The notes under the pieces were generated by a model, which was not told the DNA's origin, ran no database searches, and saw only the letters and a list, made by a program, of their open reading frames with translations. The position numbers and the translations under genes are program-made. Positions 1,330 to 27,300 of a DNA stretch of 64,000 nt are shown one piece after another (position 1 is the stretch's first letter; each line of letters begins with the position of its first letter). Source of the stretch: Nitrospirota bacterium (GTDB taxonomy: Bacteria; Nitrospirota; UBA9217); contig CAVTRN010000002.1 of the NCBI GenBank assembly GCA_963737155.1, positions 1,536,001 to 1,600,000 on the forward strand, written 5' to 3'.

Positions 1330-1539
1330 ATGCACTATCTAAACTGCGTCCGCAATATGTCGCGCCAAAAAATCAATAACCGGGCTATTTCGGCTGAGCT
1401 CGCGGTCGAGAAGGCCCGTTGCTATGCCAAAAGCATCGTGGAAACTGTTCGAGAGCCTATTTCGGTCCTGGATGACAAACTGGAGATAATTTTGGAGACC
1501 CGCAGCGGGTTACCGCTAAAGCATCCCACGGAGGCATAA
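1330..1539 (+). pseudogene. PAS-domain fragment related to CheBR-type sensor kinases
   Basis: ARCYAKSIVETVREPISVLD closely matches ARDYAEAIVETVREPLIILS in 48713..53392. Confidence 0.55.
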
Positions 1540-5120: not shown

Positions 5121-5291
5121 AACAATGTTCAGAAATAGGGTTGAGGTAAAAAATCAGCCTGGTGCCCGGCAAGGTCCACTGCAACGGAAGAAGGCAGGTC
5201 GCTGTGTGCGAGCTTGATTGAACCGCAATACGCTAACATCTTTCTTCCAATTGTGCAACCGCCTTGGCAATGCCACTATGGTCCCTTCAAG

Positions 5292-8377: not shown

Positions 8378-8425
8378 ATAAATAAGGGTTACGCATCAGT
8401 AAACCAATAACTTGAGGCCGTAAAA

Positions 8426-10117
8426 ATGTCAAATGGGAAAAGAAGCAAAAATAAGAATGTTGGTGGAAAAGACACCCTGTCATTCACTGCAAATATGCTT
8501 CTGGATGATCATCCCTACCCGGAAATAAAGACCTCTCTTTACGCCATCCTCGACGATACGGGCATCTTGTATGGCCGTATAAAGAGGACTCTGTTCAAAG
8601 ACTGCATTCGCTCCGGCAAAAAAACAACAGAATTAAAGAACGAGTACCTGTCAACGTACAAGATCACCGCACGGCAGTTCAATGCAATCCGCTATGATCT
8701 GGACGGGAATGTCAAGGTGGTAACGGAAATCAACAAGCTCAGGACCCTGGATCTTGAAGAGAAAATAATATCGGTAAAAAAGTGGATTGCAAACAATGAA
8801 TCAGGAATACTCAAAATAACGGCTGATGCGGGTATCCCGAACACTGAAAAAAAGAACCAGGCAAGAGAGCTTCAGTATCGTGTTGATAATAAGAAACGAA
8901 AGCTTGCTTCTTTGGAGCAAAAGCTTTCCAAACTCAGGGAAGATCAGAAAAACGGGCGGGTAAGGATTTGTTTCGGGTCAAACAAGATATTCAGAAAACA
9001 ATTTTCCCTGGAGGAAAACGGGTACAAGAGCCACAATGAATGGCTTCTGGACTGGAAAGGGTCTCGCAATAACACCTTCTTTTGCCTTGGCTCGAAGGAC
9101 GAATCGGGCGGGAACCAAACGTGCACCCTGAAGTCCGATGGGACGATGAGATTAAGGGTCCCTGATTGTATAAAGGACAAATACGGGCATTCCATTATAA
9201 TGCCCAGCATAAAATATCCCTATGGCCAGGAACATATCGAAGCGGCCCTTCAGGCCGGAACAGCGATTTCTCACCGGTTTACCAGGGGCGGGAAGGGCTG
9301 GTACCTGCACACGACGGTAGATATTCCAAAGGCAAAAACAGTTACTTGCAAGCCAAAGGAAATCGGGTCTATCGGAGTGGACGTCAATGAAAAAGAAATT
9401 GCGGTTAGCGAGACCGACCGGTACGGGAATTATGTCAGGAGCATAACATATCCATCCTGCGTTAAGGATTTGCGCACTGAACAGACAGAAGCAATGTATA
9501 GCGATATCTGCAAATCCATCGTGGACCGGGCAGCCAAGACGGGAAAACCTATATCCCACGAAGAACTCGATTTTAGCAAGAAGAAAGCATCCTTAAAAGA
9601 GCAGGGCGTTACTTACGCAAGGATGCTTTCCGGTTTTGCCTACGGAACCTTCCTCACCCTGCTGGATAGAAGGGCGGCAAAACATGGCGTTTCCGTGCTC
9701 CCGGTCAACCCTGCTTTCACCACGATCATAGGGAAATTTAATTACGTGGACCGCTATGGCATTACGTCGCATGAAGCTGCGGCGCTGGCCATCGCGAGAC
9801 GTTCTCAACATTTCAGTGAAAGGCCTGATTCCGCCAGAATCGCGTCTCCCGTACCTGCAAGGAATCGGGGGGCGCATATCTGGAGCATTTGGAGAAGGCT
9901 GAAGACGAGACGGGCGGGCGGTAGCATTAGCCTGACCGGCTCAAGGCGGTCCTTACAGGACTCCTCAGGTTGCGCTGAACCACAAACGAAATTTACAGCA
10001 ACGACGACAGCGCAATCCATGCGGCCACCTCTTGCTACAATAAAGAGTGTACACCGCCGCATGGGATCCCAATTCATAAATCACGGGACTTGGGTGAATC
10101 AGAGGCATGCGCCCTGA
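8426..10117 (+). CDS. tnpB: large TnpB-related protein (IS200/IS605/IS607 accessory RNA-guided nuclease family)
   Basis: RuvC-I IGVDVN, RuvC-II ISHEELDF, VNPAFTT, HEAAALAIARR in the RuvC-III position, GSKDESGGNQ motif. No C-terminal CxxC zinc finger. Confidence 0.85.
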   Translation: MSNGKRSKNKNVGGKDTLSFTANMLLDDHPYPEIKTSLYAILDDTGILYGRIKRTLFKDCIRSGKKTTELKNEYLSTYKITARQFNAIRYDLDGNVKVVTEINKLRTLDLEEKIISVKKWIANNESGILKITADAGIPNTEKKNQARELQYRVDNKKRKLASLEQKLSKLREDQKNGRVRICFGSNKIFRKQFSLEENGYKSHNEWLLDWKGSRNNTFFCLGSKDESGGNQTCTLKSDGTMRLRVPDCIKDKYGHSIIMPSIKYPYGQEHIEAALQAGTAISHRFTRGGKGWYLHTTVDIPKAKTVTCKPKEIGSIGVDVNEKEIAVSETDRYGNYVRSITYPSCVKDLRTEQTEAMYSDICKSIVDRAAKTGKPISHEELDFSKKKASLKEQGVTYARMLSGFAYGTFLTLLDRRAAKHGVSVLPVNPAFTTIIGKFNYVDRYGITSHEAAALAIARRSQHFSERPDSARIASPVPARNRGAHIWSIWRRLKTRRAGGSISLTGSRRSLQDSSGCAEPQTKFTATTTAQSMRPPLATIKSVHRRMGSQFINHGTWVNQRHAP

Positions 10118-10190
10118 CGTTAACCGGCAGCAGCACTGTTCGGCTGCCGTCCTAGTATATGGAAATAAAATACTATGGTTCCAAGAACGG
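10096..10190 (+). ncRNA. 3' part of a putative omegaRNA/reRNA scaffold (element right end)
   Basis: Three hairpins (TCAG..CTGA, GGCAGC..GCTGCC, TAGTAT..ATACTA) conserved in a second copy at 38148-38237. The true 5' end probably lies further upstream inside tnpB. Confidence 0.6.
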
Positions 10191-10442
10191 TAAGAGTACT
10201 CAACCGTTACTTCTTTCACTTTAGGCGGAGCAGGAGCAAGACGATTCTACTCTGTTGTAATAATTGCATCGTTGTCATTCTCCAAGGTCCACCTCTCCGC
10301 ATAACAATATACTCTGCATTATGCTCGATTTATGGGGTCAACTATAGACTTATAAATTTGCGCTAAGACTTTGTATATGCTAAAATTGTTTATCCATACT
10401 AACATGTAATGTTTCGGTGATAACCTCTCGAAGGGAACGATT

Positions 10443-11564
10443 ATGGGCGGTATAGAGATTATTGTTGCGGAAGGGGGGTCGGAATTAAAGGACTTCATTG
10501 ACCTGCCGTGGAGGATCCATGCTAAGCACCCCAACTGGGTTCCTCCCCTTAAGAAAGAGGTTCTCCGGATGCTGGACCCCCACAGACACCCTTTCTGGGA
10601 GTTTTCTGAGGGCATCCTCTTTCTGGCCCGACGTGGTTCGGAAACGGTGGGAAGGATCGCGGGCATCATAGATCGCCGTTATAACCAGTTCCACAACGAA
10701 AAGATGGGCATCTGGGGATTCTTCGAATGTGCTGACGATCCGGAGATTGCGGCAGCCCTCTTCTCTTCCGTGGAAACGTGGGTTCGCCGGAAAGGGATGG
10801 CCTTCATGAGAGGCCCGCTCAACCTGTCCACCAATTACGAGGTGGGCTTGCTCATTGAGGGCTTCAATTATCCGCCTGTCGTGATGATGGCATACAACCC
10901 GCCGTACTACCTGGGGCTGGTCGAATCGTGCGGCTACACCAAAGAAAAGGACCTGTTGGCTTTCCTGATAGATGGCGAGTACCGGCTTCCTGAGTGGATG
11001 GATCATCTTGCTGAACGGATAGCCAAAAAAAAGGGTATCCATATCAGGCTCTTTCGTCCAAAAGAAGAGGATGCTGAGTTTGCCCTTATCAGGGAGATAT
11101 ACAATGCCTCTTGGTCCAGTAATTGGGGTTTCGTCCCCCTGACCGATAACGAAATGCGGGACATTCAAAAGAACGTAATGGAATTCGCAGATCCGGACTT
11201 GGCTTTTTTCATCTATTATGAGAATGAACCCGCAGCAGTATGCGTGATCTTTCCCGACATTAACCCATTGCTCAAGCGTCTTAACGGGCGGATCGGTCTC
11301 ATGGGTCTGCTGAAGTTCCTCATATATCGGCGTGAGATCAAGGGACTGAGGTGTTTGATGTTCGGGATCAAGGAAGAGTACCGACAACTGGGAATCCCTT
11401 TGCTTGCCTTTCACCACATATATGAGATCGCGAGGAGACAAAAGAAATATCAGCAGCTGGAGATGGGCTGGACCCTGGAGGACAACGAGTCGATCAACTC
11501 TTTGATTGATGAAGCGGGCGCAAAAAGATATAAAAAATATCGAATATTCAGAAAGTCCTTATGA
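10443..11564 (+). CDS. YghO-like GNAT N-acyltransferase (bacterial ceramide synthase-like family)
   Basis: Motifs FIDLPW..WVPPL..HPFW, GRIAG, GFFEC, RGPLNLSTNYEVGLLIEGF, YNPPYY, NWGFVP, WTLEDN, characteristic of the YghO/bCerS double-GNAT family. Confidence 0.8.
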   Translation: MGGIEIIVAEGGSELKDFIDLPWRIHAKHPNWVPPLKKEVLRMLDPHRHPFWEFSEGILFLARRGSETVGRIAGIIDRRYNQFHNEKMGIWGFFECADDPEIAAALFSSVETWVRRKGMAFMRGPLNLSTNYEVGLLIEGFNYPPVVMMAYNPPYYLGLVESCGYTKEKDLLAFLIDGEYRLPEWMDHLAERIAKKKGIHIRLFRPKEEDAEFALIREIYNASWSSNWGFVPLTDNEMRDIQKNVMEFADPDLAFFIYYENEPAAVCVIFPDINPLLKRLNGRIGLMGLLKFLIYRREIKGLRCLMFGIKEEYRQLGIPLLAFHHIYEIARRQKKYQQLEMGWTLEDNESINSLIDEAGAKRYKKYRIFRKSL

Positions 11565-11729
11565 TTATATAGCCTTGCATAAATAGGGCTACCTCTGCTT
11601 ATTTTCTCTTAGCTCCGCTAGCTGCTTATATGAACTAAACATGTACCGTTATTAACGCAAGTTGGCAAACATCCGGGTGGATGTTAATATTGCTGCGCTT
11701 TTGTTGATCAAATTGATTTTAGGCAATGC

Positions 11730-11956
11730 AATTTTAGAGTATTAAGGATAAGCTCACGATCGTTCGGGAGCTTCTTCTTGAAAATATGTTTGCCGTTCTC
11801 ATCCTCAATGCCAAGGTACGTGTTGTTTTAATGTAGGTCTAATCCCGTGAACAATTTCATATAGCATCTCCAAGGTTAGAATGGGCCTCTTTCCTTAAAG
11901 CATACCAGAGTGCCGATTCGCTTTGGTATGCTGAGGTGTCTTCATATGATTATCAA
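11730..11956 (-). pseudogene. IS110-family transposase 5' remnant with its upstream non-coding end
   Basis: Minus strand RBS GGAG then ATG at 11860 giving MKLFTGLDLH*NNTYLGIEDENGKHIFKKKLPND (IS110 DEDD N-terminus). Upstream hairpin AGCATACCA..TGGTATGCT. Confidence 0.7.
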
Positions 11957-12100
11957 CGATGGTAGTGTATTTGATGGGCAAGAGTGCAATGGTGGTATTT
12001 AAAGGGAAATCACGAACGAGCTCGCTGGGAGTTGGATGGTTCAGGTGGTAATGATTGGTTGACGTTGGCCATGGGGCAAGGGTAAAATAGTAAGGACCGA

Positions 12101-12958
12101 ATGAACAGCAAAGCAACCGTACGAGCATGTCGAGAGAGCCTCCTCGAGTTGATGAAATGGCTGGTGGGGGTTGCGATCGGATTCGTTCACCAGACGCCCA
12201 GGCTCCACGCTCCGATGCAACCCGACGGCTGGAGTGCCCAGCCCCTATCGGTTGCGTGCCGCTTTGCCCCTGATGCCGACCTTGATCACGCCACCGGAAC
12301 GCCCGTGGGGGACGAGGGATTTTACCTCTACATCCTGAACGAAGCTGCCAATTGGGACTACAGCGATGCGAAGTCGATTCTCTTCTCGATTTGGCAGCGT
12401 CCGTGGGCGCATAGTTGGATCATCCTGGAAAGTCCCCAGGATCGTCAGGAATTCGGCCACACCGGCGACTTCGGGCAAACGAGGCCGCGTTACCATGAGG
12501 GCGTGTTTCAGAGAATTCGGGATGGGCATCCCGATCCTATCGCTTACTTGTGGCAAATGATGTCCGATGGCCAATTCCAGATTGGCAAGCCCAATCGCCC
12601 GCCCTCGTTCGTCTGGCGAATGCCGATTACCCGGCGACGGTATCAATTGATCTATGAATATGTGTTGCAGCGGAAGTATGGCCAGTTCGGCGTGAGGGCC
12701 AACAACTGCACCGATATGGTGATAGAAACGGCGGCGCTGGCGGGTATCAACCTGATTCACCGCATTCGCCTCACCTTGCCGCCGGAAGCAAAGGTTTGGG
12801 GTCGGACGCGGCGTGTTTGGACGGATCCCCAATACCGCATACTGGAGTACAGTACGCCCGACGTTCTGGAGGCAGATCTGCGCCAGCTTGCCCGGTTAGG
12901 GATCGGGAGTGATGCCACGGAGTGGCATCTTGCTTTGATGCGGGGACGATCGAGCTGA
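12101..12958 (+). CDS. hypothetical protein with a permuted NlpC/P60 (papain-like) His...Asn-Cys signature
   Basis: AHSWIILE..EFGH followed about 90 aa later by YGQFGVRANNCTD. Located immediately upstream of the PKS. Confidence 0.55.
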   Translation: MNSKATVRACRESLLELMKWLVGVAIGFVHQTPRLHAPMQPDGWSAQPLSVACRFAPDADLDHATGTPVGDEGFYLYILNEAANWDYSDAKSILFSIWQRPWAHSWIILESPQDRQEFGHTGDFGQTRPRYHEGVFQRIRDGHPDPIAYLWQMMSDGQFQIGKPNRPPSFVWRMPITRRRYQLIYEYVLQRKYGQFGVRANNCTDMVIETAALAGINLIHRIRLTLPPEAKVWGRTRRVWTDPQYRILEYSTPDVLEADLRQLARLGIGSDATEWHLALMRGRSS

Positions 12959-13018
12959 TACGTGGGCGCATCGGGTGGAATATACCCAACTGGCGAATTG
13001 TCATTAAAAGGTGAATGC

Positions 13019-16000
13019 ATGGTGATGAAGCAGAGGTCTGACATAGTGGCTGAGCATGGGATCTCTATCATCGGTTTTGTCTGGCGGCCTGAGGAGATCA
13101 CCCCATCGGTGATTCAAATGGCTCAGCGAACAGGGAGTAGGGCCGTCTTCGATTTTTCCATGACGAGGGTGGAGGGGTTACGTTCTTTCTTGCGAAAGGC
13201 TGACCCTGCCGGCCGCGTTAGGGACATCAAAATTGCTGTCCCTGCCTTCTTTGATCCATCGTTGGGGCAGTTATTGAAGGAAACTGGGGTCGACGACATC
13301 TGGGTAGAGTGCCATCCCGAGTTCTTTCAGGGAGATCCTTCCCTCTTTATGCAGCGATTGAGGGAATTGTCGGAAAACCACCATTGCTTTCCCATCATCG
13401 GTGACATGGATCTCCTGATAGCGATTTTGAAGGATAGCTCGGGCATCGGGCGCATCGTCCTGAAAGGATGCGAGGCCTCTGGATTTGTGAGCGGTGAGAC
13501 GACCACGGCTCTCTATTCGATGGCCAAGGAAATGCTGCATTCGCCCTCAAATGCTCTCGACATCCTAATCTGGGGAGGCGTCTCTACCCCTGAGGCGGCA
13601 GCGGCATTTCTGTCGACCGGGGCAACTGGGATCGTTTTCGAGAGCGTCCATTGGCTGACAGATATGGTTGCCATGGATGATGTTCAACGCCAGCAACTCT
13701 CCAATCTCCGCCTGGATTCTACCGATCTGGTTGGCTTGGATCTGCAGGTTCCCTGTCGCCTTTTCAACAAAGGAAACTCGCTTGCGTTCAAGGAGATTAA
13801 AACGTTTGAGGATTCGCTGCGCGGAGCGGAGATTACGGAAGAAAGCCGCCGCTCTTTTGTAAGCCAGGTGTATGCCAGTGCCCTCCATCCTTTGGAAAGC
13901 CGTTTCGGTCAGTATGAGGTCATCCCTCTTGGCGTGGAAGCTGCCTTTGCTGGGTCGTTTGTTGAGCGTTTTGGGGCTGGAACTGAGGAGGCCGTGAAAG
14001 CCTTCATCGACGAAATTCGTAACACATGCCGACTGGCTGAGGCAAAAAAGGATTGCTTTCTGGACAGTCCTGTCGCCAGAGAGATGGGAACCCTCTACCC
14101 CTTTATCCAGGGTGCCATGTCCTGGATCACGGATGTCCCGGAGTTTGCCGCTAGAGTTGCTGATGCCGGTGGATTGCCCACCATCGCCCTTGGCCTGATG
14201 GACGCAGAGACCCTTGACCGGAGGCTGGGACGCTTGCCGGAGATCATGGGGGGGCGCCCTTATGCAGTGAATGTCGTCTCTTTGGCAGAGAACCCTTTCC
14301 GGGAAACGCATTTGGCCTGGATAAAGAAACAGAGACCCAGTTTTGTCGTGATCGCAGGTGGCGATCTCTCCCCTTTGAGAGAATTGATAGAATGCGGCTT
14401 AGGGGTTATGTATATTGCTCCTGATGAGGCGCTGCTGAAACTCGCCGTGGAAGCCGGCGTTCGGTACGTGGTCTGCGAGGGGTATGAGGCCGGCGGCCAC
14501 GTTGGGCAGCATAGCACGCTAACCCTTGCTCAAATGGTGCTGGATCTGAAACGGCGCACGCCATCCCTGTTCAAGAACTGTCGCGTGATCCTTGCAGGGG
14601 GAATCTTTAATCGGGAGACCGCATTCATGGCCGCCATGCTCGGCGCGGACGCCATCCAGATGGGCACCGCCTATCTGGCCACCCAGGAGATCGTTGAAAC
14701 GGGCGCCTTGACGGCACTCTATCAGCGGCTGATTCTGAAATCGCCTCCGGGGGGAACAGTCGTTTCAGGCCGGGACACTGGACTTCGGGTGCGGTCCTTG
14801 AAGACCCCGAGAGTTGAAGCTATTTTATCTCTGGAGAGGGAGTTTGCAGCAGGCCACCAGGACGAGGCTTCTTTCCGGGTGAGAATGGAGGAAATGGCTG
14901 CGGGGAGCCTCTTCGCTGCAGCCCGGGGCATGGATAGGCCAGGCGAGGTGTCACTGGATGAACGGGCCTGTCTGGAACGAGGGCAATTCATGAGTGGGGC
15001 CTGCGCCGGTCTCATACGCGAGGTCCAAAATCTGCAGTCCTTTCACCGCGATCTGGCCGAGGGTCCTCTCTCGCTGCATCTGCCCGCTGTGGGTTCGATC
15101 GAGAGAACCGCGGAGGCGCCATTCTCCTCGGTCAGCCCGGGACGGAAGCGAGTTGTGCCCCACGGAGACGATCGTGAAAGGGTTGCCATCACCGGGATGA
15201 GCATACTTAATGCCCTGGGGAAGAGTCCGGAGGAAGTCTGGACTTCAAGCCTGGCCATGAAGAGCGGGATTACCTTGGTTCCGCCTTCGCGGTGGGATCA
15301 CACACTTTTCTATGATCCCCGGCCGAACGTTCCGGACAAGACCTACTGCAAGGTGGGCGCCTTTACCGATTTTCATATTTCTCGCAATGACCTCGGGATT
15401 TCTCCCCATGATTTCCGTTCCATGACCGAAGCAACAAAGATCACCCTGTGGTTGGCGGACAAGGCCATCCGGGCATCGGGTATCCTCGATTCGGACATCC
15501 CGCGCGAACGGATCGGCGTCCTCATCTCCCAGAACTCGGGAGAGGCGGCAGGGGTTCTTACCAATACCATAATCAGGGCGTACGTTCACGATATCCTCAT
15601 TTCCGCCAAAAGGGCCGTGCACCTTACGCCGCACCAGGAGAGCGCCATCGAACGAGAGGTGAAGTCAGGACGCATGTCACCTGACGACACCACACTTCTG
15701 GGCAGACTCAATTGCGCGGTGGCCGGCTTCATCTGCAGCCGGTATGGGTTCATGGGGCCAAGCTACGCCGTCTCTGCAGCCTGTGCGACCTCGCTGGTTG
15801 CACTTCACAGCGCCATCCAGATGATCCGGAGCGGTATCATCGATGCAGCCATCGTTGGCGGGGGCGAGGAGAATCTCACTCATTTGCATTTTCTGGAATT
15901 CTCCGCCCTGGGCGCACTTTTCGGGATGTCCGGAAAGGAAAGACCCGCTCACGAGACCTCCCGTCCCTTCGATGCAGAACGAGATGGGATGATCCTCGGC

Positions 16001-19000
16001 GAAGGCGGGGGGATGATCGTCATCGAGCGGGAAAGCCTGGCCCGCGCACGAGGGGCGCGTCTCCACGCATTCGTGACAGGCATGGGAGCGAGCAATAACC
16101 ATCTGAGCATGGTGGAGTCCTCCCATGTCACCCAACAGATGGCCATCCGTGCCTCTTTCCGAGGGATACCCTATGGACCCGATGCCGTGGACCTCGTGGA
16201 ATGCCATGCCACGAGCACCCGGCAAGGGGACGTGGAGGAGGTCCGCGCTCTGAAGGCCGTCTTCAATTCCTCCAAGCGCACCGTGATCACCTCATTCAAA
16301 TCCCAGATAGGACACACGCTGGGCGCCTCGGGTATTAACAGCCTCATTCGAGGAGTCACGGCTATGAAGGCGGGGATTTTTCCTCCTACCCTCAATTATA
16401 TGCATCCAGATCCGGAAATCGACTTGAACGGATCGGGTCTCCTCATCGCCCCGGAGCCACTTGACTGGACTTGCAGGGTCGGCGAGCCAAGAAGGCTTCA
16501 GGTCAATGCCTTCGGGTTTGGAGGTTCCAACTACGTTGCGCAGGTGGAGCAGGCTATGGATGAATCGGATACGATCCTGGTCTCACCCGGCAGAGAATCC
16601 GGACTTGATAGAGAGAAGAGGGATGGCTCTCCCACGCTCCAAGGCGTTTTTTTCTTTCGAACTGAGATCGACGGCCGCAATCTCCGGCTGGCCGTCGTGG
16701 CGCAAACCGAAGAGAATGCGCTCATGGTCATCGAAAGGTCGGCCTCCATCGTCGAAGCCGGGGTTGCCTCACCCAGAATATTGAGATCCTTGGCGCAGCA
16801 GGGGATTTTCATGAGCCCCGAGGATATGCCGGCCCTACCGCTTGCCTTTGTATTTCCCGGACAGGGATCACAGTACGGAGGAATGGGGCTGGATCTCTAC
16901 GAGTCCTTTCCCGTCATCAAGGAGTGGATGGATCGGGCTGCAGTTGTAGCGGACTTCGACCTCCTTCATTTATTGTTCCACGATCGAGAGGAGAATCTTC
17001 AGAAGACCCGGTGGCAGCAACCTGCCATGTTCGCCATGGAACACGCCATGGCTCGATACCTCACTACTCTGGGTATCCATCCCGTGGCCATGGCTGGCCA
17101 TAGTTTGGGCGAACTGATCGCCTTGTGCCTGGCCGGTGTCTATTCCGCGGAGGACGGATTTCGAATTGTGAACAAGAGGGCCCTCTGCATGGACAAGGCC
17201 GCTGCCATTCACAGGGAACCCGGCGTCATGGCGGCCGTGGACGCTCCCCTGGATCTGCTGAAAGAGATGATCCGGGGACGGGAGAATGTCCACATCGGCA
17301 ATATTAATTCACCGAACCAGGTCGTCCTGAGCGGTAACACCGGGGCGGTCAAGGATATTGGCAAAAGACTGAAGGAAATGGGATACCGGGCCACCCTGCT
17401 GCCGGTTAGCATGGCCTTCCACTCTCCTAACATGAGGGTCATTCATGACGAGCTCGAGGCGTACATTGCCTCCATTCCATTTAATTCCCCGCAGATTCCG
17501 GTCATCTCCAACACGACCATGGCACCGTATCCGTCAGATCCCGGGGAAATCAGGCGAATCCTGATGGCTCACCTGGAATCTACCGTCCATTGGATGAATA
17601 ATGTCCAGACCCTCTGGAATGACTACGGAGCCCGGCTCTTCGTGGAGGTGGGCCCCGGAGAAATACTAAGCAATCTCATCTCAGACACGCTTCCTGAACC
17701 GGTATGCATCCAGACGTGCCTTCCTTCCGCAGAGGGCCTGACCTACAAGACCGCTCTCGCTCAGCTCTTCGTTCAGGGTCATCTAAGGGCTGAAGGAGAA
17801 CTGCGGTTTGTTCCCCTCCCTGCAGTCGGAAAAACTCCTGGGTCTCGCCGGATCGCCCCGGCACCCTCGTTATGGCCGTCGGAACCTGGGCTTGCAGGCT
17901 CCAACCCGGTGGAGAGGATCATCCAAAGGGAAATCAACCGATTCGTGATGAAGAACTTCGGACGCTCCCTTAAGCCCAACATCCTGGAAGCGATCCGCCA
18001 GGAGCTTGACCCAACATTCCAGGAAGGCGACCTGTCATCCGTCATCAGATCCATGTTTGAGGGTTCCGGGCCTCCTGAAGATCAGAAACAGGTCGTTCTC
18101 GGTAAACCGGCATCCCCGTATTTCGATTCCACACGTTCCATTCCGGGACAGGCCTCACTTGCCCCCGGTGAGGCGTCCGAGGGCCAGGATCTTATGGAGA
18201 GGCTTATACGGATCATCATGGATGCTACAGGGTTCAATAGGGAGGAGATCCAACCCGATATGGATCTCAGGAAGGACCTCTCCATCCGGTCCAGCCGCCT
18301 CCCCATCATCATGGATGCTGCGGAACGCCAATTCGGGATCACTATCGAATTGGAGGATTTTATCAATGTCCGCACTGTGAAAGACATTGCCCAGAGAATC
18401 TCCAAGATAATCGCCAGGCAGGGAGGTACCGTCCTGACGCCAGCCACTCAGACGGCTGAAGCGGGCTTCATGCACGGTAAAGCCCTGAAGCCCTCTCCGG
18501 CCATTCCGGGACAGGCCTCCCTTGCCCCCGGTGAGGCGTCCGAGGGCCAGGATCTTATGGAGAGGCTTATACGGATCATCATGGATGCTACAGGGTTCAA
18601 TAGGGATGAGATCCAACCCGACATGGATCTCAGGAGGGACCTCTCCATCCGCTCCAGCCGCCTCCCCATCATCATGGATGCTGCGGAACGCCAATTCGGG
18701 ATTACTATCGAATTGGAGGATTTTATCAATGTCCGCACTGTGAAAGACATTGCCCAGAGAATCTCCAAGATAATCGCCAGGCAGGGAGGTACCGTCCTGA
18801 CGCCAGCCACCCAGGCGGCTGAAGCGGGCTTCATGCACGGTGAAACCCTGAAGCCCTTACAGGATGAGTCGAGTTTAAAGCGGCTCGTATTCAAGAGCGT
18901 TCCTCTGAAGCTATCGGCCCCGGCTCCACTACAAATGAGCCCAGGCGAGTCAGTGCTTCTTCTGTCACCGGAAAGGGATGACGAGATTGCTAGGAATGTC

Positions 19001-21337: not shown

Positions 21338-21385
21338 GCCTCCCGGACTCGGAAGGGACGCAGACCGGGAAGCAGGGGAGCGAAT

Positions 21386-22120
21386 GTGGCAAAGGATCGC
21401 GAAGGAGTAACCGTCCATACGATGAGTCCCGTTCCTCGAAGGGGGCCGGTCTTCTATGCATCCCTGCCACGTGACACCGAAGCCCCCACGGGACAGGGTA
21501 CGAACGGAGAAGATGACAAGCACCGCCTCGTCTCCGCCTTGTGGGATCACCTTGTGGCGATGGAAAATCCTCTTTGGAAACGCTGTCAATCTTCCACCAG
21601 CGCTGCTTTCCCAATTCAGGTGGTCCGCGGCCTGCTTGGCAGGCCCCATCTCCTGTTGGGAGAATCCCATGGTCCGGCCATCTCCTTCAGCGAGGGTGGA
21701 GGAAAAGTCTGGGCTGCTCTTTGTGGCGATGAGTCTGATATCGGCATTGATGCGGTAGGGACCGATGAATTCCATAGAGGATACCCTTATCAACGGGTCT
21801 TCCATCCGCAAGAGCTCCAACATGCCCAGGGATTGGCGGGCGGAGATCTGGAAATGGCATCAGCCCTGCTCTGGTCCATCAAGGAAGCCATAGTCAAGGC
21901 ACTGGGATGTGCATTCCATCTCGTGGATCCGCGGCAGATCACCGTCAATCCATCGGCAGGGGGGAACGGCGTGTATACCTTTCCGGTTGGCTTATCAGGG
22001 AAGGCCCTTGCGCGATTTCCCCTGGCTGCGCGTGGGTCCTTATGGGTGCATTCGCTTCCCCAGAGCAAGATGTGGCTTTCCATCGCCCTCTTGAACCGGA
22101 GACCAGCAGACCATGAATAA
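21386..22120 (+). CDS. 4'-phosphopantetheinyl transferase
   Basis: GRPHL, IGIDAV and WSIKEAIVKALG motifs. Adjacent to the PKS. Confidence 0.9.
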   Translation: MAKDREGVTVHTMSPVPRRGPVFYASLPRDTEAPTGQGTNGEDDKHRLVSALWDHLVAMENPLWKRCQSSTSAAFPIQVVRGLLGRPHLLLGESHGPAISFSEGGGKVWAALCGDESDIGIDAVGTDEFHRGYPYQRVFHPQELQHAQGLAGGDLEMASALLWSIKEAIVKALGCAFHLVDPRQITVNPSAGGNGVYTFPVGLSGKALARFPLAARGSLWVHSLPQSKMWLSIALLNRRPADHE

Positions 22121-23291
22121 CCTTACCTGCAATCACGTGCCGCGGTCAGACGGAGTGCCGGCGGCAGATCTTGGACGGCTTTTCCCAGAGCCGTCTATTA
22201 CCGCCCCCCTTCTTTCGCTGTTACAGGAATCGGGTATTGACGGTTTTAACCTGCGCAGTATCGTGGTGTCGAAAGATGATGTTCCTGTTCTCTTATTGCC
22301 GTTATTTGAGACTCGTTTTGATTTGTCCACTTTTGCGGAGGGATGGATCAAGAAATCGCTGAAAGTGTCAGGCCGTCTCGTCCCCTCGGTTTTTCAACCC
22401 CGCGTTCTGGGCGTGGGATTGGTGGAAGGGGAATGGAGTGAAATCGGGATCGATCCTCAAATCGATGAGGGCACCCTAGATGCGGCGTGCAACATGGCCT
22501 TGAGCGTCCTGCACACGCTTGCGGCCGAACTTAAAAGCGACATCGAGGCGCTTTACAACTTTAATCAGTACAGCAAGCTTCCCGGGGAAGTATTCAAGAA
22601 ATTCAACCAGGTGCAATTTAGGTCTTGCGCCCGCTTGCCGATCAATTTTAACAGCATGGAGGAATACCTAGGTCGCCTTTCAAGTGCCGCGAGAAAAGAC
22701 CTGCACCGCAAAATGCGGGTTGCCCCCGAAATCCGGGTAATTCGAAGTCGTACTATTTCGCCTTTTCTGGACAGGATCTACCAGCTTTATCGGGAAACAG
22801 TGGAGCGCAGTCCCATGGCGCTTGGCGTGCACAACCGTTTATTTTTTGAAAAGATCTGTGAAAAAGTACCGGGCGCCGAGTACACGCTCTATTTTGTGCA
22901 GGAAGAACTCGCCGCTTTCAACCTTCTCGTCATAAAACAGCAATGGATGGAGGATATATATTTCTGCATGGATCACGAGCTTGGCAGCAACTACAACCTT
23001 TATTTCTTATCCTGGCTTGAAAATGTCCGCACCTGCGTCGAGCGGAAGATCCCGCTCTATTACGCGGGCCAGGGCACGGAGAAGACCAAAGCGCATATGG
23101 GTGCGACGTTTATCCCGAGCTTTATTTTATTCAAGCACCGCCATCTGGTATTTGACCGTCTTCTTGCCGGGCAGCCGGCGTTGATTGCGAAGGTCCTCAG
23201 CCATCTCGGGTTTTGGCCAGCCGCCTCCTCGAGCCGCTTCGGATGTTCTGGCGCGGAGCCGACAGGAGCAGGTCCTTGTACGCCGCCTTGA
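22113..23291 (+). CDS. GNAT/FemAB-like acyl- or aminoacyl-transferase
   Basis: SMEEYLGRLSSAARKDLHRK, YNLYF and YAGQGTEKTK motifs. Overlaps the PPTase stop (translational coupling). Confidence 0.75.
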   Translation: MNNLTCNHVPRSDGVPAADLGRLFPEPSITAPLLSLLQESGIDGFNLRSIVVSKDDVPVLLLPLFETRFDLSTFAEGWIKKSLKVSGRLVPSVFQPRVLGVGLVEGEWSEIGIDPQIDEGTLDAACNMALSVLHTLAAELKSDIEALYNFNQYSKLPGEVFKKFNQVQFRSCARLPINFNSMEEYLGRLSSAARKDLHRKMRVAPEIRVIRSRTISPFLDRIYQLYRETVERSPMALGVHNRLFFEKICEKVPGAEYTLYFVQEELAAFNLLVIKQQWMEDIYFCMDHELGSNYNLYFLSWLENVRTCVERKIPLYYAGQGTEKTKAHMGATFIPSFILFKHRHLVFDRLLAGQPALIAKVLSHLGFWPAASSSRFGCSGAEPTGAGPCTPP

Positions 23292-23402
23292 TCCGGTCGC
23301 GCAGAAGAATGAACTCAGACGGGGTGAGCGTCTTCAACGCCCGCAGAAGTCCTGACGTAACAACGTTCAATACCGTTTCCCATAGAGGCGAGATGGAGAT
23401 TC

Positions 23403-24353
23403 ATGACCAAAGAAACTGAATACGCAATCGAAGTCGAAAAACTGACGAAGCGATACGTGGATTTACTGGCGGTCAAAGACATATCGTTCAACGTCAGGAA
23501 AGGCGAGGTGTTCGCCCTGCTGGGGCCGAATGGCGCCGGCAAGACCACTACCGTCGAGATCATCGACACAATCCGCACGCCCACGTCTGGGAAAGTGACC
23601 CTTCTTGGCATGGACGTCACGAAGAAGAAGCATAACATCGTCCACCGCATCGGCGTCCTCCCGCAGGGGTTCAGCTCTTTCGACAGGATAACGGTCAAAG
23701 AGACCTTGCAGTACTACTCGCGGCTTTTCAGCCACCCGAAAACCGATATTGACGGACTAATAGAGCTCGTGAACCTCAAGGACAAGACCAAAGAGCAGTA
23801 CAGGAACCTCTCTGGGGGACTGAGGCAGCGCCTAGGAATCGCGATCGCGCTTGTGAACGATCCCGAGGTCGTGTTCCTCGACGAGCCGTCGACAGGGCTC
23901 GACCCCCGAGCAAGACGCGAGGTGTGGGAAGTCCTGCAAGGGCTGAAGAAAAAGGGGAAAACGGTGTTTCTGACCACACACTACATGGAGGAGGCGGAAC
24001 TTCTTGCAGACACGGTCGCAATCATCTCGAGGGGGAAAATCATCGCGATGGGCTCACCCGGAGAACTCATCGAAAACAACGCACATGACTTGGTTCTTAC
24101 TCTGCAGTCCGTCGATGAAAAAGTCCTACACATCGTCCGGAAGATGGGCTTCAAGACGGCTCTGAACGACCATAACATCAAGATCAGGCTGGAGCACACG
24201 GACGATGTGCAGAAGATACTGAGCGCCATCAAGGATGCCGGGGCGTTGTACCTCGGCTTGGATGTTCGGAAACCCAACCTTGAAGAGGTCTTCCTGAAGC
24301 TCACCGGCGAGGTGCTCCGCGATGGTCCCGTCGGGGCAAAGGGGGCGGAATGA
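23403..24353 (+). CDS. ABC-2 type exporter ATP-binding protein
   Basis: GPNGAGKT, LSGG, FLDEP, TTHYMEEA. Confidence 0.95.
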   Translation: MTKETEYAIEVEKLTKRYVDLLAVKDISFNVRKGEVFALLGPNGAGKTTTVEIIDTIRTPTSGKVTLLGMDVTKKKHNIVHRIGVLPQGFSSFDRITVKETLQYYSRLFSHPKTDIDGLIELVNLKDKTKEQYRNLSGGLRQRLGIAIALVNDPEVVFLDEPSTGLDPRARREVWEVLQGLKKKGKTVFLTTHYMEEAELLADTVAIISRGKIIAMGSPGELIENNAHDLVLTLQSVDEKVLHIVRKMGFKTALNDHNIKIRLEHTDDVQKILSAIKDAGALYLGLDVRKPNLEEVFLKLTGEVLRDGPVGAKGAE

Positions 24354-25465
24354 ACCTGCGCATCATCGGTGCAAATCTCTTCGTGAAACTCATGAGTGTC
24401 TACCGCGAGAAGGCCGCCATGTTCTTCACGATTGCGTTCCCGATAATCCTGATACTCGTGTTCGGTACGATCTTTATGAGCAAGGACAACGTGAGCTTCC
24501 ACCTTTGCGTGCAGGACCTCGACCAGACGAATTCGTCCGCACAGACCGTCAAGGCCCTCGAGCTCGACGGGAAGTTCAAGATAACCAAGGTCGACCCGGC
24601 CATCAACGCCACCCAGTACATCAGGGACAACAAGGTGAACCTGGTCCTCGTTATTCCCAAAGGCTATGAAAGGTCCCTCTCGCAGAGGGCGATGTTCAGC
24701 GACCCCACCGCATCCGTCACCATCACCTATATATACGACCCCAGTTCCTCTTCGGTGCCCACGAAGATACAGATCCTGAACGCGGTGATCGCCGGGATTA
24801 ATCAGAAGATGTCCGGGACGCCGCCGTTCATCAGGTCGGCCGAGACATCGATACTTACCAAGAAATACCGGTTCATCGAGTTCTTCATTCCCGGCATCAT
24901 CGCAATGGCGGTGATGACGTTGAGCCTGTTCGGCACGGTGAACTTGAACACGGAGCTGCGACAGAAGGGCATCATCAGGAAACTGTCTACGACGCCTATC
25001 ACCCGTACCGACTGGATACTTTCGAACATTCTGTTCCAGTTTACGATCGCGGTCATATCCACGATCGCGATGCTGCTGGTAAGCTATGCCGTGTTTCACG
25101 TCCGCCTGCATATAGATGCATGGCTCCTTGTGTTCATTTTGCTTGACGTCTTCGCGTTCGTTGGGATCGGGATGATACTCACCCGCTTCGTCAAAGAGGC
25201 GCAGAGCGCCGCCGCCGCCGCAAACGCCATCAGTTTCCCAATGATGTTCCTCTCCGGGAGTTTCTTCCCCATCGAGCTGATGCCGGGCTTCCTGCAGACA
25301 TTCGCCAAGATACTGCCGCTGTATTACGTGAACGAGGGGCTCCGGGCATCAATGATATTTGAAGACAACATGGCTGCGCTGCGTTACTCAGCGATCATAG
25401 GGGTTTTTGCGGCCGTGGTCTTCATCCTGGGCATAATAGCCACCAAGTGGGAAGAGGACGCGTGA
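24350..25465 (+). CDS. ABC-2 type exporter permease
   Basis: Six TM segments with a large periplasmic loop, FLSGSFFP motif. ATGA overlap with the ATPase. Confidence 0.92.
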   Translation: MNLRIIGANLFVKLMSVYREKAAMFFTIAFPIILILVFGTIFMSKDNVSFHLCVQDLDQTNSSAQTVKALELDGKFKITKVDPAINATQYIRDNKVNLVLVIPKGYERSLSQRAMFSDPTASVTITYIYDPSSSSVPTKIQILNAVIAGINQKMSGTPPFIRSAETSILTKKYRFIEFFIPGIIAMAVMTLSLFGTVNLNTELRQKGIIRKLSTTPITRTDWILSNILFQFTIAVISTIAMLLVSYAVFHVRLHIDAWLLVFILLDVFAFVGIGMILTRFVKEAQSAAAAANAISFPMMFLSGSFFPIELMPGFLQTFAKILPLYYVNEGLRASMIFEDNMAALRYSAIIGVFAAVVFILGIIATKWEEDA

Positions 25466-25565
25466 TATAGCATAGTACTCCCTTCGCATCATCACTCAAG
25501 GAAGGAGGTTCGGCAAAAAAGACGCTGGTTGGTTTTATGGAAAAAAATATTGGAGAGATGAAAAC

Positions 25566-26918
25566 ATGAAAATAAAACTTATCGCACCCCATGAACATCG
25601 TCAAGACGCTTTATCCAGCCCTTTCAAGTTCCAAAGGGTGAATCTTCCTCTTCTGTCTGCGCTTACCCCGCCCGGCCACACAGTGACCCTTGTCGAGGAA
25701 TCTTTTGCGCCCGATGACATCAATCAAGATGTTGATTTGGTGGGCATCACCGTCTTGACCGAACTTGCGTTAAGAGCCTATCATATCGGTGACACCTATC
25801 GCCAGAAGGGTGTGAAGGTGGTGATGGGAGGAATACACCCCACGGTATTGCCAGACGAAGCTTTAAAGCATGCAGACGCTGTCGTTGTAGGAGAAGCGGA
25901 GGGCGTCTGGCCGCGACTTGTATCGGATGCCGCCTTGGGACAGATGCAAAGGCTATATCGGGCGGGTAAAATGACCGATCTCAAAGGCCTACCGAAACCA
26001 CAGCGAAATCTCTCACCTGGAACCAACGGTAAAGGTTATATCCCGATCCCGATCGGCGTCGAGACATCCCGCGGCTGTCCGTACGATTGTGAATTCTGTT
26101 GCATTGGCCAGACATTGGGGCATCAGTATCGAGTCAGGCCGGTTCAGGAGGTGATTGCCGAGATAGAGTCCATTGATTCCCCTCACCTCTTCTTCGTCGA
26201 TGACGCCCTTGGACTGAACCGGAATGCAGCGAAAAAGCTCTTTACTGAAATGATACCTCTTCGGCGGCGATGGCTGGCGCAAGGAACAGTGTCGTTGGCT
26301 GAGGACGTGGAGCTGCTCAGATTGATGGAACGTGCGGGGTGCCTGGGGCTTTTGATCGGGTTCGAATCGGTACAGAAAGGAACACAGAATGAGGTGAATA
26401 AAATAAAGAACCTGAGAATCGATTTTTATGAGGCCATGCATCGATTCCATGGCGAAGGTTTCGGTATACTCGGCTCCTTTGTTTTTGGCTTTGATTACGA
26501 AAATAAGGATGTGTTCGAGCAGACCCTTGAGTTTATAATGAGGAGTCGTATGGATGTTGCCCAGCTGAGGATTCTCACTCCTTATCCGGGAACACGGTTA
26601 TATGAGCGTCTCTTAAGCGAAGGCAGGTTGTTGGCCCGTGATTGGTGGCTCCGTGGATATCCTCCGGATACAGTCCTTTATCAACCCAAGGGCATGACTG
26701 CCGACGAACTCATTAACGGCTTCTCCCGCTTGAACAGACAAGTATATTCTTTCGGCGCAATGACAAAACGATTCTTTGGCATGAGCCCATGGAAACGGAC
26801 TCTGCTCGGCTGCCAGGCGTACGTTGGAGTCAATCTATCTACTCGTAAACGCTATTTCAAAGGTCTGAAGAATCCACAACCATTTGCAGAGGCTTCCAAC
26901 TCAATAGAAAAGCGGTAG
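25566..26918 (+). CDS. B12-binding radical SAM protein
   Basis: VVMGGIHPT B12-binding motif, SRGCPYDCEFC, FFVDD, IGFES, TPYPGT. Confidence 0.93.
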   Translation: MKIKLIAPHEHRQDALSSPFKFQRVNLPLLSALTPPGHTVTLVEESFAPDDINQDVDLVGITVLTELALRAYHIGDTYRQKGVKVVMGGIHPTVLPDEALKHADAVVVGEAEGVWPRLVSDAALGQMQRLYRAGKMTDLKGLPKPQRNLSPGTNGKGYIPIPIGVETSRGCPYDCEFCCIGQTLGHQYRVRPVQEVIAEIESIDSPHLFFVDDALGLNRNAAKKLFTEMIPLRRRWLAQGTVSLAEDVELLRLMERAGCLGLLIGFESVQKGTQNEVNKIKNLRIDFYEAMHRFHGEGFGILGSFVFGFDYENKDVFEQTLEFIMRSRMDVAQLRILTPYPGTRLYERLLSEGRLLARDWWLRGYPPDTVLYQPKGMTADELINGFSRLNRQVYSFGAMTKRFFGMSPWKRTLLGCQAYVGVNLSTRKRYFKGLKNPQPFAEASNSIEKR

Positions 26919-27119
26919 ACATCACCTATGAAAAAACCGGCAAATATACACCGCGCATATCCTCTCAAAAGATCTTTACAGAATAAAATGGCTGACCCTC
27001 ACACCTCGCCATCGCTTCAAACCCAGATACCATGCTGTAACAGCAGAGTTTTCAATTTGAGCGTCGGTGTCACGCCAGGGCAGCGGCGCTCCTTCGACTT
27101 CTCTCCTTTTAACCATGCG

Positions 27120-27300
27120 GTCTTCCAAGAGCAACATTACCATCAAGAGCGTAACCACCAAGGAAGAGGTAATGTGTTGTCTTTTCCTTCTCCACGATAG
27201 GAGCAAAAGCGCGATCATCCTCATCAATGTCGAGAAAGGTTCGGAGGTCTGTTTAAATATTACGACCATAAGGCCGCATGAGTTGTTTGGTCGTACGGGA
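27120..27300 (+). pseudogene. integrase-core (IS-type) transposase 3' remnant
   Basis: HYHQERNHQGRGN and ..GGLFKYY..AA* fragments, followed by a probable element end TTTGGTCGTACGGG. Confidence 0.5.

Follow-up and report, generated by a model that had tools for sequence, protein, structure and literature searches.

The window, a stretch of 64,000 nucleotides from a Nitrospirota genome, carries the gene of an iterative polyketide synthase (PKS) close to a gene of the bacterial ceramide synthase (bCerS) family, and this raises the question of which lipid such a combination could make and where its amine acceptor would come from. We propose, as a testable but unproven answer, that a mobile cassette of eight genes, which joins a megasynthase, a second bCerS paralogue and an exporter, is a candidate source of unusual long-tailed ceramides in bacteria living where oxygen is absent.

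Integrity and surroundings of the cassette

Eight co-oriented, open reading frames on the plus strand span positions 10443-26918 (16.5 kb); they are listed here with the left neighbour and with a gene remnant on the right.

8378..10191, + strand: multi-copy TnpB-like insertion element, left neighbour, outside the pathway (34 segments matched by tblastn in the genome; copies at the DNA level up to 96%)
10443..11564, + strand: YghO/bCerS-family N-acyltransferase, cassette-specific second copy (373 aa)
12101..12958, + strand: permuted NlpC/P60 (papain-like) Cys-His enzyme (285 aa; no Pfam family)
12962..21337, + strand: one-module iterative synthase (2791 aa; likelier start the ATG at 13019 or 13025)
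21386..22120, + strand: dedicated 4'-phosphopantetheinyl transferase, PPTase (244 aa; PF01648, E 5e-11)
22113..23291, + strand: FemAB-like/BioF2-like tandem GNAT, candidate aminoacyl-tRNA-dependent (or acyl-CoA) transferase (392 aa)
23403..24353, + strand: ABC-2 exporter ATPase, DrrA/NodI-like (316 aa; 72-90% identical in related cassettes)
24350..25465, + strand: ABC-2 exporter permease (371 aa; PF12698, E 5e-38)
25566..26918, + strand: B12-binding radical SAM enzyme, optional member (450 aa; HpnP-like architecture)
27012..27050, - strand: stump, the final 13 codons, of a second papain-like gene now deleted, convergent and lipoprotein-type (C-terminal amino acid and DNA matches)

The original prediction of eight intact, co-oriented genes inside an otherwise decaying island was borne out, as all frames are open at these positions and under purifying selection (pairwise dN/dS 0.14-0.69 across all eight genes, two comparators each), and the flanks are damaged by insertion sequences on both sides. 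The labels it gave to the genes (YghO-like, permuted papain-like, TE-less PKS, PPTase, FemAB-like, ABC-2 pair and B12 radical SAM) agree with the domain, sequence and structure matches. Upstream lie an IS1380-like transposase and the multi-copy TnpB-like frame; downstream are glgB split by IS630, an ISL3 element, an alpha-amylase-family gene with a frameshift and a sulfate permease that is truncated. An upstream AsmA-family gene was left out of the cassette because it is merely 31-35% identical to the AsmA genes near six other cassettes. A promoter and terminator scan of positions 10100-13100 gave results at chance level.

Relatives keep an EptA-like gene and a second papain-like gene, both of which are lost from the window copy; the stump at 27012..27050 matches the C-termini of five of the six convergent papain-like copies tested (69-90% in amino acids) and loci L066, L110 and L115 at the DNA level (78-88%). 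These losses, the damaged flanks and the disappearance of the cluster from a second copy of the island are what would be seen if the cassette were silent or decaying in its Nitrospirota host and yielded nothing there. This is very improbable, as the eight frames have stayed open over 16.5 kb with intact catalytic residues, dN/dS stays below 1, and departures from the consensus are not in excess (in each of the six genes tested, their share at conserved columns is within the span shown by the homologues).

The megasynthase

The domains of the synthase, all on the plus strand, are arranged as follows.

About 13049-14056, + strand: ER-like repeat without the His
14087-15061, + strand: FabK/PfaD-type ER
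15176-16552, + strand: KS
16847-17701, + strand: AT
18197-18400 and 18560-18763, + strand: two ACPs
19568-20188, + strand: KR
20411-21322, + strand: DH

No TE was detected among the Pfam and NCBIfam domains of the 2791-aa chain. The catalytic residues are present; the DH has Glu at the position where we take Asp to be usual, which counts against the pathway proposed below. The ACP motif reads IRSSR, with RS replacing DS. No other PPTase was matched in the genome by tblastn at E 1e-4.

The description of this protein as a Pfa-like PKS stands in part. In common with PfaABCDE, the cassette has a PfaA-related KS-AT-ACPn-KR core, a PfaD/FabK-type ER and a dedicated PPTase; unlike PfaABCDE, its synthase is a single gene in which Pfam and NCBIfam identify a single KS and a PS-DH, with neither a second KS/CLF nor a FabA-type DH, and its TIGR02813 score is 427.8 against a cut-off of 1010.1. 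The ER-ER-KS-AT-ACPn-KR chain without TE is the Type P (ars) arrangement, and the synthase is 29% identical over 1534 aa to a Beijerinckia ars-type synthase (a plasmid protein). It is closer to lipid synthases of the ArsA type than to PUFA synthases, and it would not be expected to make a polyunsaturated product.

The likeness to ArsA/ArsD of Azotobacter and Beijerinckia extends to tandem FMN-type ER repeats, KS, AT, ACPs and KR in one TE-less chain (PMC3098273, PMC6274091), to a neighbouring PPTase and ABC exporter, and to a proposed hand-off from ACP to partner. Three differences are apparent. First, the cassette DH is fused to the synthase, whereas the ars DH is fused to the PPTase, so that an ArsD-like DH-PPTase fusion is lacking here; second, no type III PKS (ArsB/ArsC) occurs among the eight genes or the recurrent neighbour families, the partners being acyltransferases; third, the ACPs have IRSSR in place of GIDS. 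The products of ars-type synthases are C22-26 chains, which go from the ACP straight to the partner enzyme (PMC3098273, PMC6274091). In the cassette, the PPTase would prime the unusual ACPs, and the single-module synthase, having all reductive domains, would iterate on malonyl-CoA to give a long, largely saturated acyl chain, which would remain on the ACP because the synthase has no thioesterase.

The acyltransferase and its association with the synthase

The 373-aa protein aligns over its full length with E. coli YghO (33% over 374 aa, E 5e-68), a homology that points to membership in the bCerS/YghO family; yghO is listed as a homologue of CC_1154 (PMC9386255). It is 38% identical to the SPT-adjacent paralogue of the same genome and 34% to a Roseomonas 'dATP pyrophosphohydrolase'; searching solved structures by sequence gave nothing useful for it. 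In a quick tree the cassette GNATs form a clade of their own (46 rows, SH-aLRT 100) with a stem of 1.24, far diverged from other bCerS, and 54 columns are conserved between this clade and the other bCerS/YghO proteins. Four of the five annotated YghO-family loci that were opened sit in sphingolipid-type contexts.

The cassette is present at 60-90% identity in several phyla, mostly anaerobic. Within an unbiased sample of 301 genomes of the phylum, the orthologues of the KS and of the GNAT are carried by the identical six genomes (6/6 both ways), so the two genes do co-occur elsewhere, as the original prediction required. The GNAT orthologue was likewise found in 53 of 61 genomes with the PKS in the fetched loci, a set gathered through the papain-like gene in which kin are not independent.

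The source of the amine

As had been noted, the window holds no SPT-like gene; it has no AOS gene either. A search of the genome for SPT/AONS homologues located an SPT-like gene outside the window, in a CerR-SPT-bCerS-PAP2-like operon on the other contig (about 1,249,965-1,254,270); the SPT-like and CerR-like genes that accompany bCerS/YghO proteins are found in the same genome. The gene has the PLP lysine motif GTYSKS and is placed between the CerR-like and bCerS-like genes. Its score of 569.6 bits is under the NF047600 cut-off of 640, which none of the 301 phylum genomes reaches, and it is filed as SPT-like; NF047600 is still its best model (BioF and Kbl models score 434 and 395), and a separate BioF in the genome passes its own cut-off.

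Each of the six genomes with KS and GNAT has, in addition, an SPT-like gene and a bCerS-like gene of the ordinary kind. The presence of SPT in six of six is weak on its own because SPT-like genes are common in these families anyway (132/301 genomes; 25/37 in the host's own family, 30/30 and 11/11 in two others). Of the 61 PKS genomes, 23 have an SPT/AOS-like gene no more than 6 kb from the cassette, and 29 have at least one of SPT, CerR, PAP2 and a second bCerS there, against an expectation of about 1% per genome. In FastTree trees, which were also used for the papain-like proteins, the cassette-adjacent SPT-like genes are spread over four or more supported clades. The genome's own SPT belongs to one whose members in seven relatives of that tree stand immediately upstream of the cassette; the genome's CerR, SPT, bCerS and PAP2 are 74-82% identical to those cassette-adjacent copies. 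A strong SPT-like match is absent from 11 of 48 cassette genomes, which are MAGs of unknown completeness, and one more has only a broken copy. These comparisons narrow the candidate amine acceptor to a serine-derived long-chain base from SPT-like genes.

Should the GNATs instead amidate the chain onto an amino acid, a diamine or a sugar amine, independently of SPT, the sphingolipid link would reflect shared envelope-lipid islands. SPT is not adjacent in 38 of the 61 genomes, the long stem separates the cassette clade from other bCerS, and homologues of the FemAB-like protein (~29%) in Agrobacterium and Roseomonas cluster with a class-III aminotransferase and a HAD phosphatase, not clearly in SPT clusters. 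This reading is rather unlikely in the face of the repeated recruitment of four SPT clades, CerR and PAP2 beside the cassette, the 54 shared columns and the sphingolipid-type contexts.

If the base is serine-derived, the chain could enter it at either of two positions. In PfSgaAB of Pseudomonas fluorescens MYb115, an iterative type I PKS is coupled to sphingolipid synthesis and, with an SPT, gives very long C24-C28 sphinganines that are un-acylated, no ceramide synthase being described in the accessible part of the source (PMC12134224). By analogy, an SPT would condense the synthase chain with serine or alanine to a very-long-chain base, and the second bCerS would acylate that base with ordinary fatty acids. 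A cassette-linked SPT clade, often with CerR and a stand-alone FabF-like KS, is in keeping with this, and a clade of 12 SPT-like genes (FastTree), mostly beside cassette genes and with no ordinary bCerS alongside, would also fit a PKS-to-SPT route. We nevertheless regard it as unlikely: the bCerS paralogue is kept far oftener than a linked SPT (53/61 against 23/61), the PKS gene in the window is not directly paired with an SPT gene, and the SPT-like neighbour of several cassettes is a fusion of acyl-AMP ligase, ACP and AOS (L104 by domains, five more by similarity) that brings its own acyl supply. The N-acyl position appears to be favoured by these fusions and also by loci with one SPT and two bCerS genes (L028, L034, L036, L055, L071, L074 and L078). 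As far as the accessible part of the PfSgaAB(C) source goes, the cassette is set apart from that system by gene content, its most conserved partner being a ceramide-synthase homologue.

Tailoring and export

In the papain-like protein, H104, W106, P146 and C203 are invariant in 128 sequences, with the His preceding the Cys. Foldseek returned no match at E<=0.001 for the 285-aa model (pLDDT 94.5); the nine best VIA-align matches are all permuted NlpC/P60 proteins (Z scores: TseH 9.4, YiiX 7.1, DeSI 6.3, RID 5.4, CLN5 4.8, PLAAT4 4.4), placing the protein in that superfamily. This enzyme may transacylate or trim. Alternatively, it might itself set the acceptor and attach the chain by an ester bond to a ceramide, lipid or envelope protein already present, with the bCerS paralogue making the acceptor. 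PLAAT4, CLN5 and RID, which presumably bring lipid transacylases and fatty acyltransferases into the fold family, speak for such O-acylation, as does the position of the gene abutting the PKS in the window, where the copy may act in the cytoplasm because its lipoprotein Cys is lost. A clean lipobox is found in 36 of 69 sequences, and these would be exported away from the ACP; moreover, the best structural match is TseH, which we take to be a peptidoglycan-type amidase, the dN/dS values (0.33 and 0.69) are the most relaxed of the set, and some cassettes have only a convergent lipoprotein copy (L110). On these grounds, O-acylation by this enzyme is highly unlikely.

The FemAB-like protein matches PF04339 (E 5e-5) and ATE_C (E 3e-4), its Atlas clusters are PF04339/PF13480, and sequence searches of solved structures gave nothing useful. 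By Foldseek, the one source of the fold assignment, its model (pLDDT 72.5) is closest to FemX (E 1e-6, TM about 0.4, rmsd 8), followed by Sbb17/Sba18, A-PGS/MprF and ATE1, with acetyl-CoA tandem GNATs at E 2e-5; it is a candidate for the fold of aminoacyl-tRNA transferases. A basic helix with invariant R194, R199 and K200 is presumably linked to tRNA binding. The FemX-fold enzyme may add an amino acid or an acyl group.

The radical SAM protein has B12, radical SAM and DUF4070 domains and CxxxCxxC at residue 171, features that would make it a class B (cobalamin) methylase. Its architecture is that of HpnP and the HpnP-like methylases, the clades of which are mostly uncharacterised (PMC10697835); unlike HpnP, it stays far under the cut-off of every named NCBIfam family (best HpnJ, 101.7 against 577.6 bits), and a sequence search of solved structures had AprD4 and one unnamed protein as its sole matches. 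A hopanoid role, suggested by the HpnP-like domain set and by the presence of a squalene-hopene cyclase in the genome, was set aside because the radical SAM gene travels with the cassette at 77-90% identity. The predicted radical modification of the chain is unproven: 29 of 48 genomes have the gene, an optional member that accompanies the FemX-fold gene, and the chain is therefore favoured no more than the head group. The enzyme may methylate either the group added by the FemX-fold enzyme or the chain, and the ABC-2 pair would export the product.

Proposed pathway and significance

On balance we judge it probable, if only by a little, that the synthase builds a long saturated chain, that this chain is moved by the second bCerS onto a serine-derived base, and that the long-tailed ceramide is tailored and exported. 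The cassette would then extend the bacterial ceramide pathway as a mobile accessory: the base would be supplied in trans by the CerR-SPT-bCerS-PAP2-like operon, the cassette paralogue would transfer the chain to its amine, and the resulting ceramide would bear an N-acyl tail of unusual length. Direct observation covers what the genes are, their folds and catalytic residues, their co-occurrence and their linkage to SPT-like genes; each chemical step, the length of the chain and the sequence of the reactions are proposals drawn from these. The bCerS already characterised is described as dependent on acyl-CoA (PMC9386255), whereas the candidate uptake here would be from a PKS-bound ACP, which counts against this reading.

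With the Spt-bCerS (CC_1154, YghO)-CerR pathway of Caulobacter and E. coli BL21, the cassette shares a full-length YghO-family acyltransferase (PMC9386255, PMC11087976), and SPT-like and epimerase/CerR-like genes are in the genome, adjacent in many relatives. That pathway draws on ordinary acyl-CoA/acyl-ACP pools and, unlike it, the cassette has a separate bCerS clade tied to a megasynthase, a PPTase, an exporter and tailoring genes. None of the systems compared corresponds to the cassette, and literature searches found no paper describing it. The expectation of an exported amide-linked lipid with a PKS-derived chain is supported in that it withstood both refuting conditions open to computation, a match to a characterised pathway and a lack of GNAT-PKS co-occurrence.

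Bacterial sphingolipid synthesis was resolved only recently, and we know of PKS involvement in one system, where it makes the base. A megasynthase that feeds its product to a ceramide synthase of its own would join PKS and sphingolipid synthesis in a second way, different from the first. If true, this would bring new enzymes: a synthase of very long chains, a pair of ACP and PPTase that recognise each other through an unusual motif, and candidates for the transfer of aminoacyl and methyl groups to sphingolipids. The euxinic Black Sea is rich in ceramides whose acyl chains measure C32-C39; they co-vary with Desulfobacterota, have no known producer and, according to their discoverers, have not been met in any organism (PMC11334938). 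It is possible, though doubtful, that the cassette family is the source of such C32-C39 (often odd-numbered) N-acyl ceramides of anoxic waters, through direct hand-off from the RS-motif ACP to the dedicated ceramide synthase, B12 radical methylation and tRNA-dependent aminoacylation of the sphingolipid by the FemX-fold enzyme. The cassette offers a concrete gene set for this open geochemical question and, if the proposal is true, a lipid biomarker would be linked, through these genes, to a trait spread horizontally among anaerobes.

Cluster content and integrity

All eight plus-strand open reading frames of the cluster are uninterrupted and lie where the original prediction placed them, and the flanks hold IS elements and broken genes, so that its description of intact genes inside a decaying island is fair. 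Pairwise dN/dS ranges from 0.14 to 0.69 (two relatives per gene), with the maximum in the 285-aa gene and the PPTase, and the departures of the window copy from conserved columns fall within the range of its homologues for the six genes tested. Pfam and NCBIfam resolve the PKS into an NMO/FabK-type ER, KS, AT, two ACPs, KR and PS-DH, with no thioesterase detected, and recover the PPTase, the FemAB-like protein (weakly), the ABC-2 ATPase and permease, and a B12-binding radical SAM protein with DUF4070; the labels assigned to these genes from sequence alone, including that of a TE-less PKS, are thereby matched. The 373-aa and 285-aa proteins have no match in either library.

For the 285-aa protein, 257 relatives were found at E≤0.001 (50% representatives), and His104 and Cys203 are invariant across 128 aligned homologues. 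Its structure model is confident and the top structural matches are nine permuted NlpC/P60 proteins, which bears out the permuted papain-like assignment; the Atlas agrees weakly (TseH-like, IcsB/Lnb-like), with a recognition score under the threshold of the tool. A clean lipobox is present in 36 of 69 papain-like sequences and a degenerate one in many others; in the window copy, the Cys at the lipobox position is missing. One remnant of a related gene lies in the window:

27012-27050, stump of a second, convergent lipoprotein papain-like gene

Several observations concern the surroundings of the cluster. Contig C2 of the window's own genome (G000) carries, at ~2,056,100-2,058,800, a further version of the right flank (window 26858-30650) at 93-96%. 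This copy starts with the final 20 codons of the radical SAM gene and adjoins DNA similar to that immediately before the window. It seems to represent a duplicate of the island that has lost the entire cluster, apparently by deletion; its glgB is without the IS630 insertion. Upstream of the cluster lie genes for an outer-membrane phospholipase A1 (window 1539-2528) and an AsmA-family protein (5214-6782), and AsmA/DUF748-sized, Mla-like and VacJ-like genes (the latter two labelled by inspection) recur at low identity near other cassettes. Window 38390-47970 contains an intact gene for a 2903-aa GH94 cyclic beta-1,2-glucan synthase-like protein and, after it, a GalU-like gene; at four loci (L064, L069, L079, L118), close homologues (57-75%) are found in the vicinity of papain-like or SPT genes. 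Elsewhere, contig C1 (~674-689 kb; L004:1906-17365) carries a distinct NRPS-PKS cluster that includes a PPTase of its own and an acyl-CoA dehydrogenase.

Distribution of the cassette

Scanning genome contigs with the 285-aa protein as query gave 72 loci, assigned by record title to Thermodesulfobacteriota, Nitrospirota, Myxococcota-type Deltaproteobacteria, Acidobacteriota, Verrucomicrobiota, Lentisphaerota, Planctomycetota, Rokubacteria and one Thioalkalivibrio. Once further flanks were fetched, a PKS orthologue was present in 61 of the 72 genomes. Among these 61, a set biased toward the 285-aa gene by the collection query, the GNAT orthologue is found in 53, the PPTase in 44, the FemAB-like and ABC genes in 38, the radical SAM gene in 28, the EptA-like gene in 24 and all eight genes in 21; each count is a minimum, since many contigs break off. 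A search of 301 genomes from the window's phylum, Nitrospirota, served as an unbiased check. Some bCerS-like (bacterial ceramide synthase-like) gene occurs in 145 of them, the orthologue of the cassette GNAT in six, and the KS orthologue in the same six, so that the predicted pairing of GNAT and PKS recurs elsewhere; three of the five other cassette-positive genomes apparently recur in the larger set, as G014, G016 and G017. The cassette is absent from all eight same-genus genomes searched, and the synonymous distance of its genes to distant taxa is just 0.2-0.5, which together point to recent horizontal spread.

The GNAT and the source of the amine

The 373-aa GNAT is 33% identical to E. coli YghO (E 5e-68), in agreement with its YghO-like label, and matched 45 plasmid records by tblastn, 44 of them over at least 80% of the query. 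yghO is listed as a homologue of Caulobacter CC_1154, an acyl-CoA N-acyltransferase (PMC9386255), and bCerS is described as the cytoplasmic enzyme that attaches the second chain (PMC11087976). In three of five annotated YghO-family loci opened, an AOS-type (alpha-oxoamine synthase) aminotransferase and an epimerase adjoin the gene, and in one an acyl-AMP ligase and an epimerase; the Bacteroides locus has no sphingolipid-type neighbours. G000 also encodes an ordinary bCerS paralogue, 38% identical, immediately behind a gene resembling serine palmitoyltransferase (SPT). This pair is present in two copies, 99.6% identical over 2.7 kb (L001:12659-15378 on C2 and L002:8833-11554 on C1); beside the C2 copy, the CerR-like gene is reduced to a 32-aa stub and the PAP2 gene is absent. 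A quick tree (66 rows) places the cassette GNATs in a single clade (46 rows, SH-aLRT 100, stem 1.24), and a separate clade of ten comprises eight from loci just upstream of cassettes and two from G000; the order of the deep splits is unsure, because long branches meet at the base.

The original prediction had found no amine source within the window. The genome search for SPT homologues that it proposed located one on contig C1, where CerR-like, SPT-like and bCerS-like genes form a run facing a PAP2_3 gene, and therefore the gap is filled in trans. On NF047600, its top model, the SPT-like protein reaches 569.6 bits, below the cut-off of 640, and G000 encodes a separate BioF. The four C1 genes are 74-82% identical to genes immediately upstream of the cassette at L028 and L055. 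Of the 61 genomes, 23 have an SPT/AOS-like gene no more than 6 kb from a cassette gene, and 29 have at least one of SPT, CerR, PAP2 and a second bCerS near the cassette; chance would place an AOS gene there in ~1% per genome, assuming three per 4 Mb, and no p-value is claimed because kin are not independent. The cassette-adjacent AOS genes fall into at least four supported clades (FastTree, 49 AOS proteins), and the G000 SPT belongs to the clade that occurs upstream of cassettes. Across whole genomes, an SPT-like gene at ≥544 bits is present in 30 of the 48 with a cassette; of the other 18, six carry a fusion-type AOS gene of greater length next to the cassette, one has a broken SPT-like copy and for 11 no strong match was obtained. 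In the phylum, SPT-like genes occur in 132 of 301 genomes, none reaching the NF047600 cut-off; they mostly adjoin bCerS-like genes and are near-universal in several families, so sphingolipid potential looks widespread. Because they are this common, their presence in all six sampled cassette genomes is weak evidence.

Two kinds of cassette-linked AOS arrangement were also observed. At a cassette end, L104:8675-12052 encodes a 1125-aa acyl-AMP ligase-ACP-alpha-oxoamine synthase fusion (domains verified), and similar long frames are present in five other genomes. A stand-alone FabF-like ketosynthase accompanies a cassette-linked SPT clade (L097:5321-6565, also L100, L102, L110, L118 and L140).

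In the proposed pathway the synthase would provide the N-acyl chain of a ceramide. This reading is the most economical on three grounds: the bCerS paralogue is a steadier partner than linked SPT (53 versus 23 of 61), seven loci combine one SPT with two bCerS genes, and fusion-type SPTs carry their own acyl supply. An SgaAB-like route (PMC12134224), in which the PKS chain would enter the base, is a viable alternative, especially for cassettes with the dedicated SPT clade. For both routes we infer all of the chemistry.

The synthase and its chain

The catalytic residues of the synthase are as follows.

KS: C941, H1082 and H1118, present
AT: S1381 and H1487, present
KR: K2334, S2357 and Y2371, present
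DH: H2519 and, in the role of the acid, Glu2709, present
ER: H513, present

The synthase is closer to the ars type than to the Pfa type originally proposed. The protein scores 427.8 against a PfaA cut-off of 1010 and, unlike PUFA synthases, yielded neither a CLF nor a FabA-type DH with Pfam and NCBIfam; a saturated rather than polyunsaturated chain would thus be expected. The nearest full-length annotated relatives, at ~29%, are plasmid synthases of Beijerinckia and Methylosinus, whose neighbours are type III PKS-like genes, a PPTase and ABC genes; the PPTase beside the Beijerinckia synthase is fused to a DH. Beijerinckia is placed in Type P, an ars cluster whose product has C22-26 chains (PMC3098273), and we infer that the plasmid locus is that cluster; the ACP of ArsA passes its chain directly to the partner enzyme (PMC6274091). 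Residues 1-365 align with the following ER, lacking the ER His, and since ER domains function as dimers (PMC13311796), the tandem region may form an internal pseudo-dimer. The ACP motif reads [S/A][I/V]RSSR in all 34 motifs recovered from 27 homologues (two further pattern matches are not ACPs, and one protein yielded no motif), with Arg against the GIDS of Beijerinckia; this Arg would explain a private PPTase.

FemX-fold and radical SAM enzymes

The model of the 392-aa protein (pLDDT 72.5) matches FemX first, followed by aminoacyl-tRNA enzymes and acetyl-CoA tandem GNATs. The source of one close homologue names it a BioF2-like acetyltransferase, and BioF2 is an SPT-like protein with an additional N-terminal domain (PMC12910592). 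The radical SAM orthologue is present in 29 of 48 cassette genomes, namely in 28 of 37 with the FemAB-like gene versus one of 11 without. Some double absences are due to missing contigs, but at L126, L127, L059 and L061 the PPTase gene is joined straight to the ABC genes. This association suggests that the radical enzyme acts on the group added by the FemX-fold enzyme, or together with that enzyme. The available portions of PMC10697835 and PMC13459092 provide an HpnP-like architecture and lipid precedents, with no sphingolipid case found there.

Variant cassettes (L059, L061, L065, L126, L110) are without the FemAB-like and B12 radical SAM genes and carry an unnamed 366-aa family, mostly with a SPASM radical SAM gene. 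An EptA-like membrane phosphotransferase, a candidate head-group transferase, is usually encoded between the permease and radical SAM genes (L076:14093-15871 and 23 other genomes); its gene is absent at window 25466-25565, was not found in the window's genome, is shortened in L090, L098 and L119, and has been repeatedly lost. Distant FemAB-like homologues (~29%) in Agrobacterium and Roseomonas (L121:4681-10445, L122:2251-9984) belong to a recurrent cluster with HAD phosphatase, class-III aminotransferase, alpha/beta hydrolase and EamA-type proteins.

Implications

A literature search, mostly of open-access journals, found no description of the cassette, and five taxon stems had no match in 12 of the 20 supplementary files of PMC12134224, whose long tables are possibly incomplete. 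The cassette is a real, conserved and undescribed variant that combines known modules, namely bacterial ceramide enzymes, an ars-type synthase and tailoring enzymes. PMC11334938 reports 1-deoxyceramides that are not known in any organism, with acyl chains up to C39, more than half of them odd-numbered, which co-vary, as a correlation, with Desulfobacterota or Bacteroidota. With its predicted product, the cassette renders this open biomarker question directly testable.
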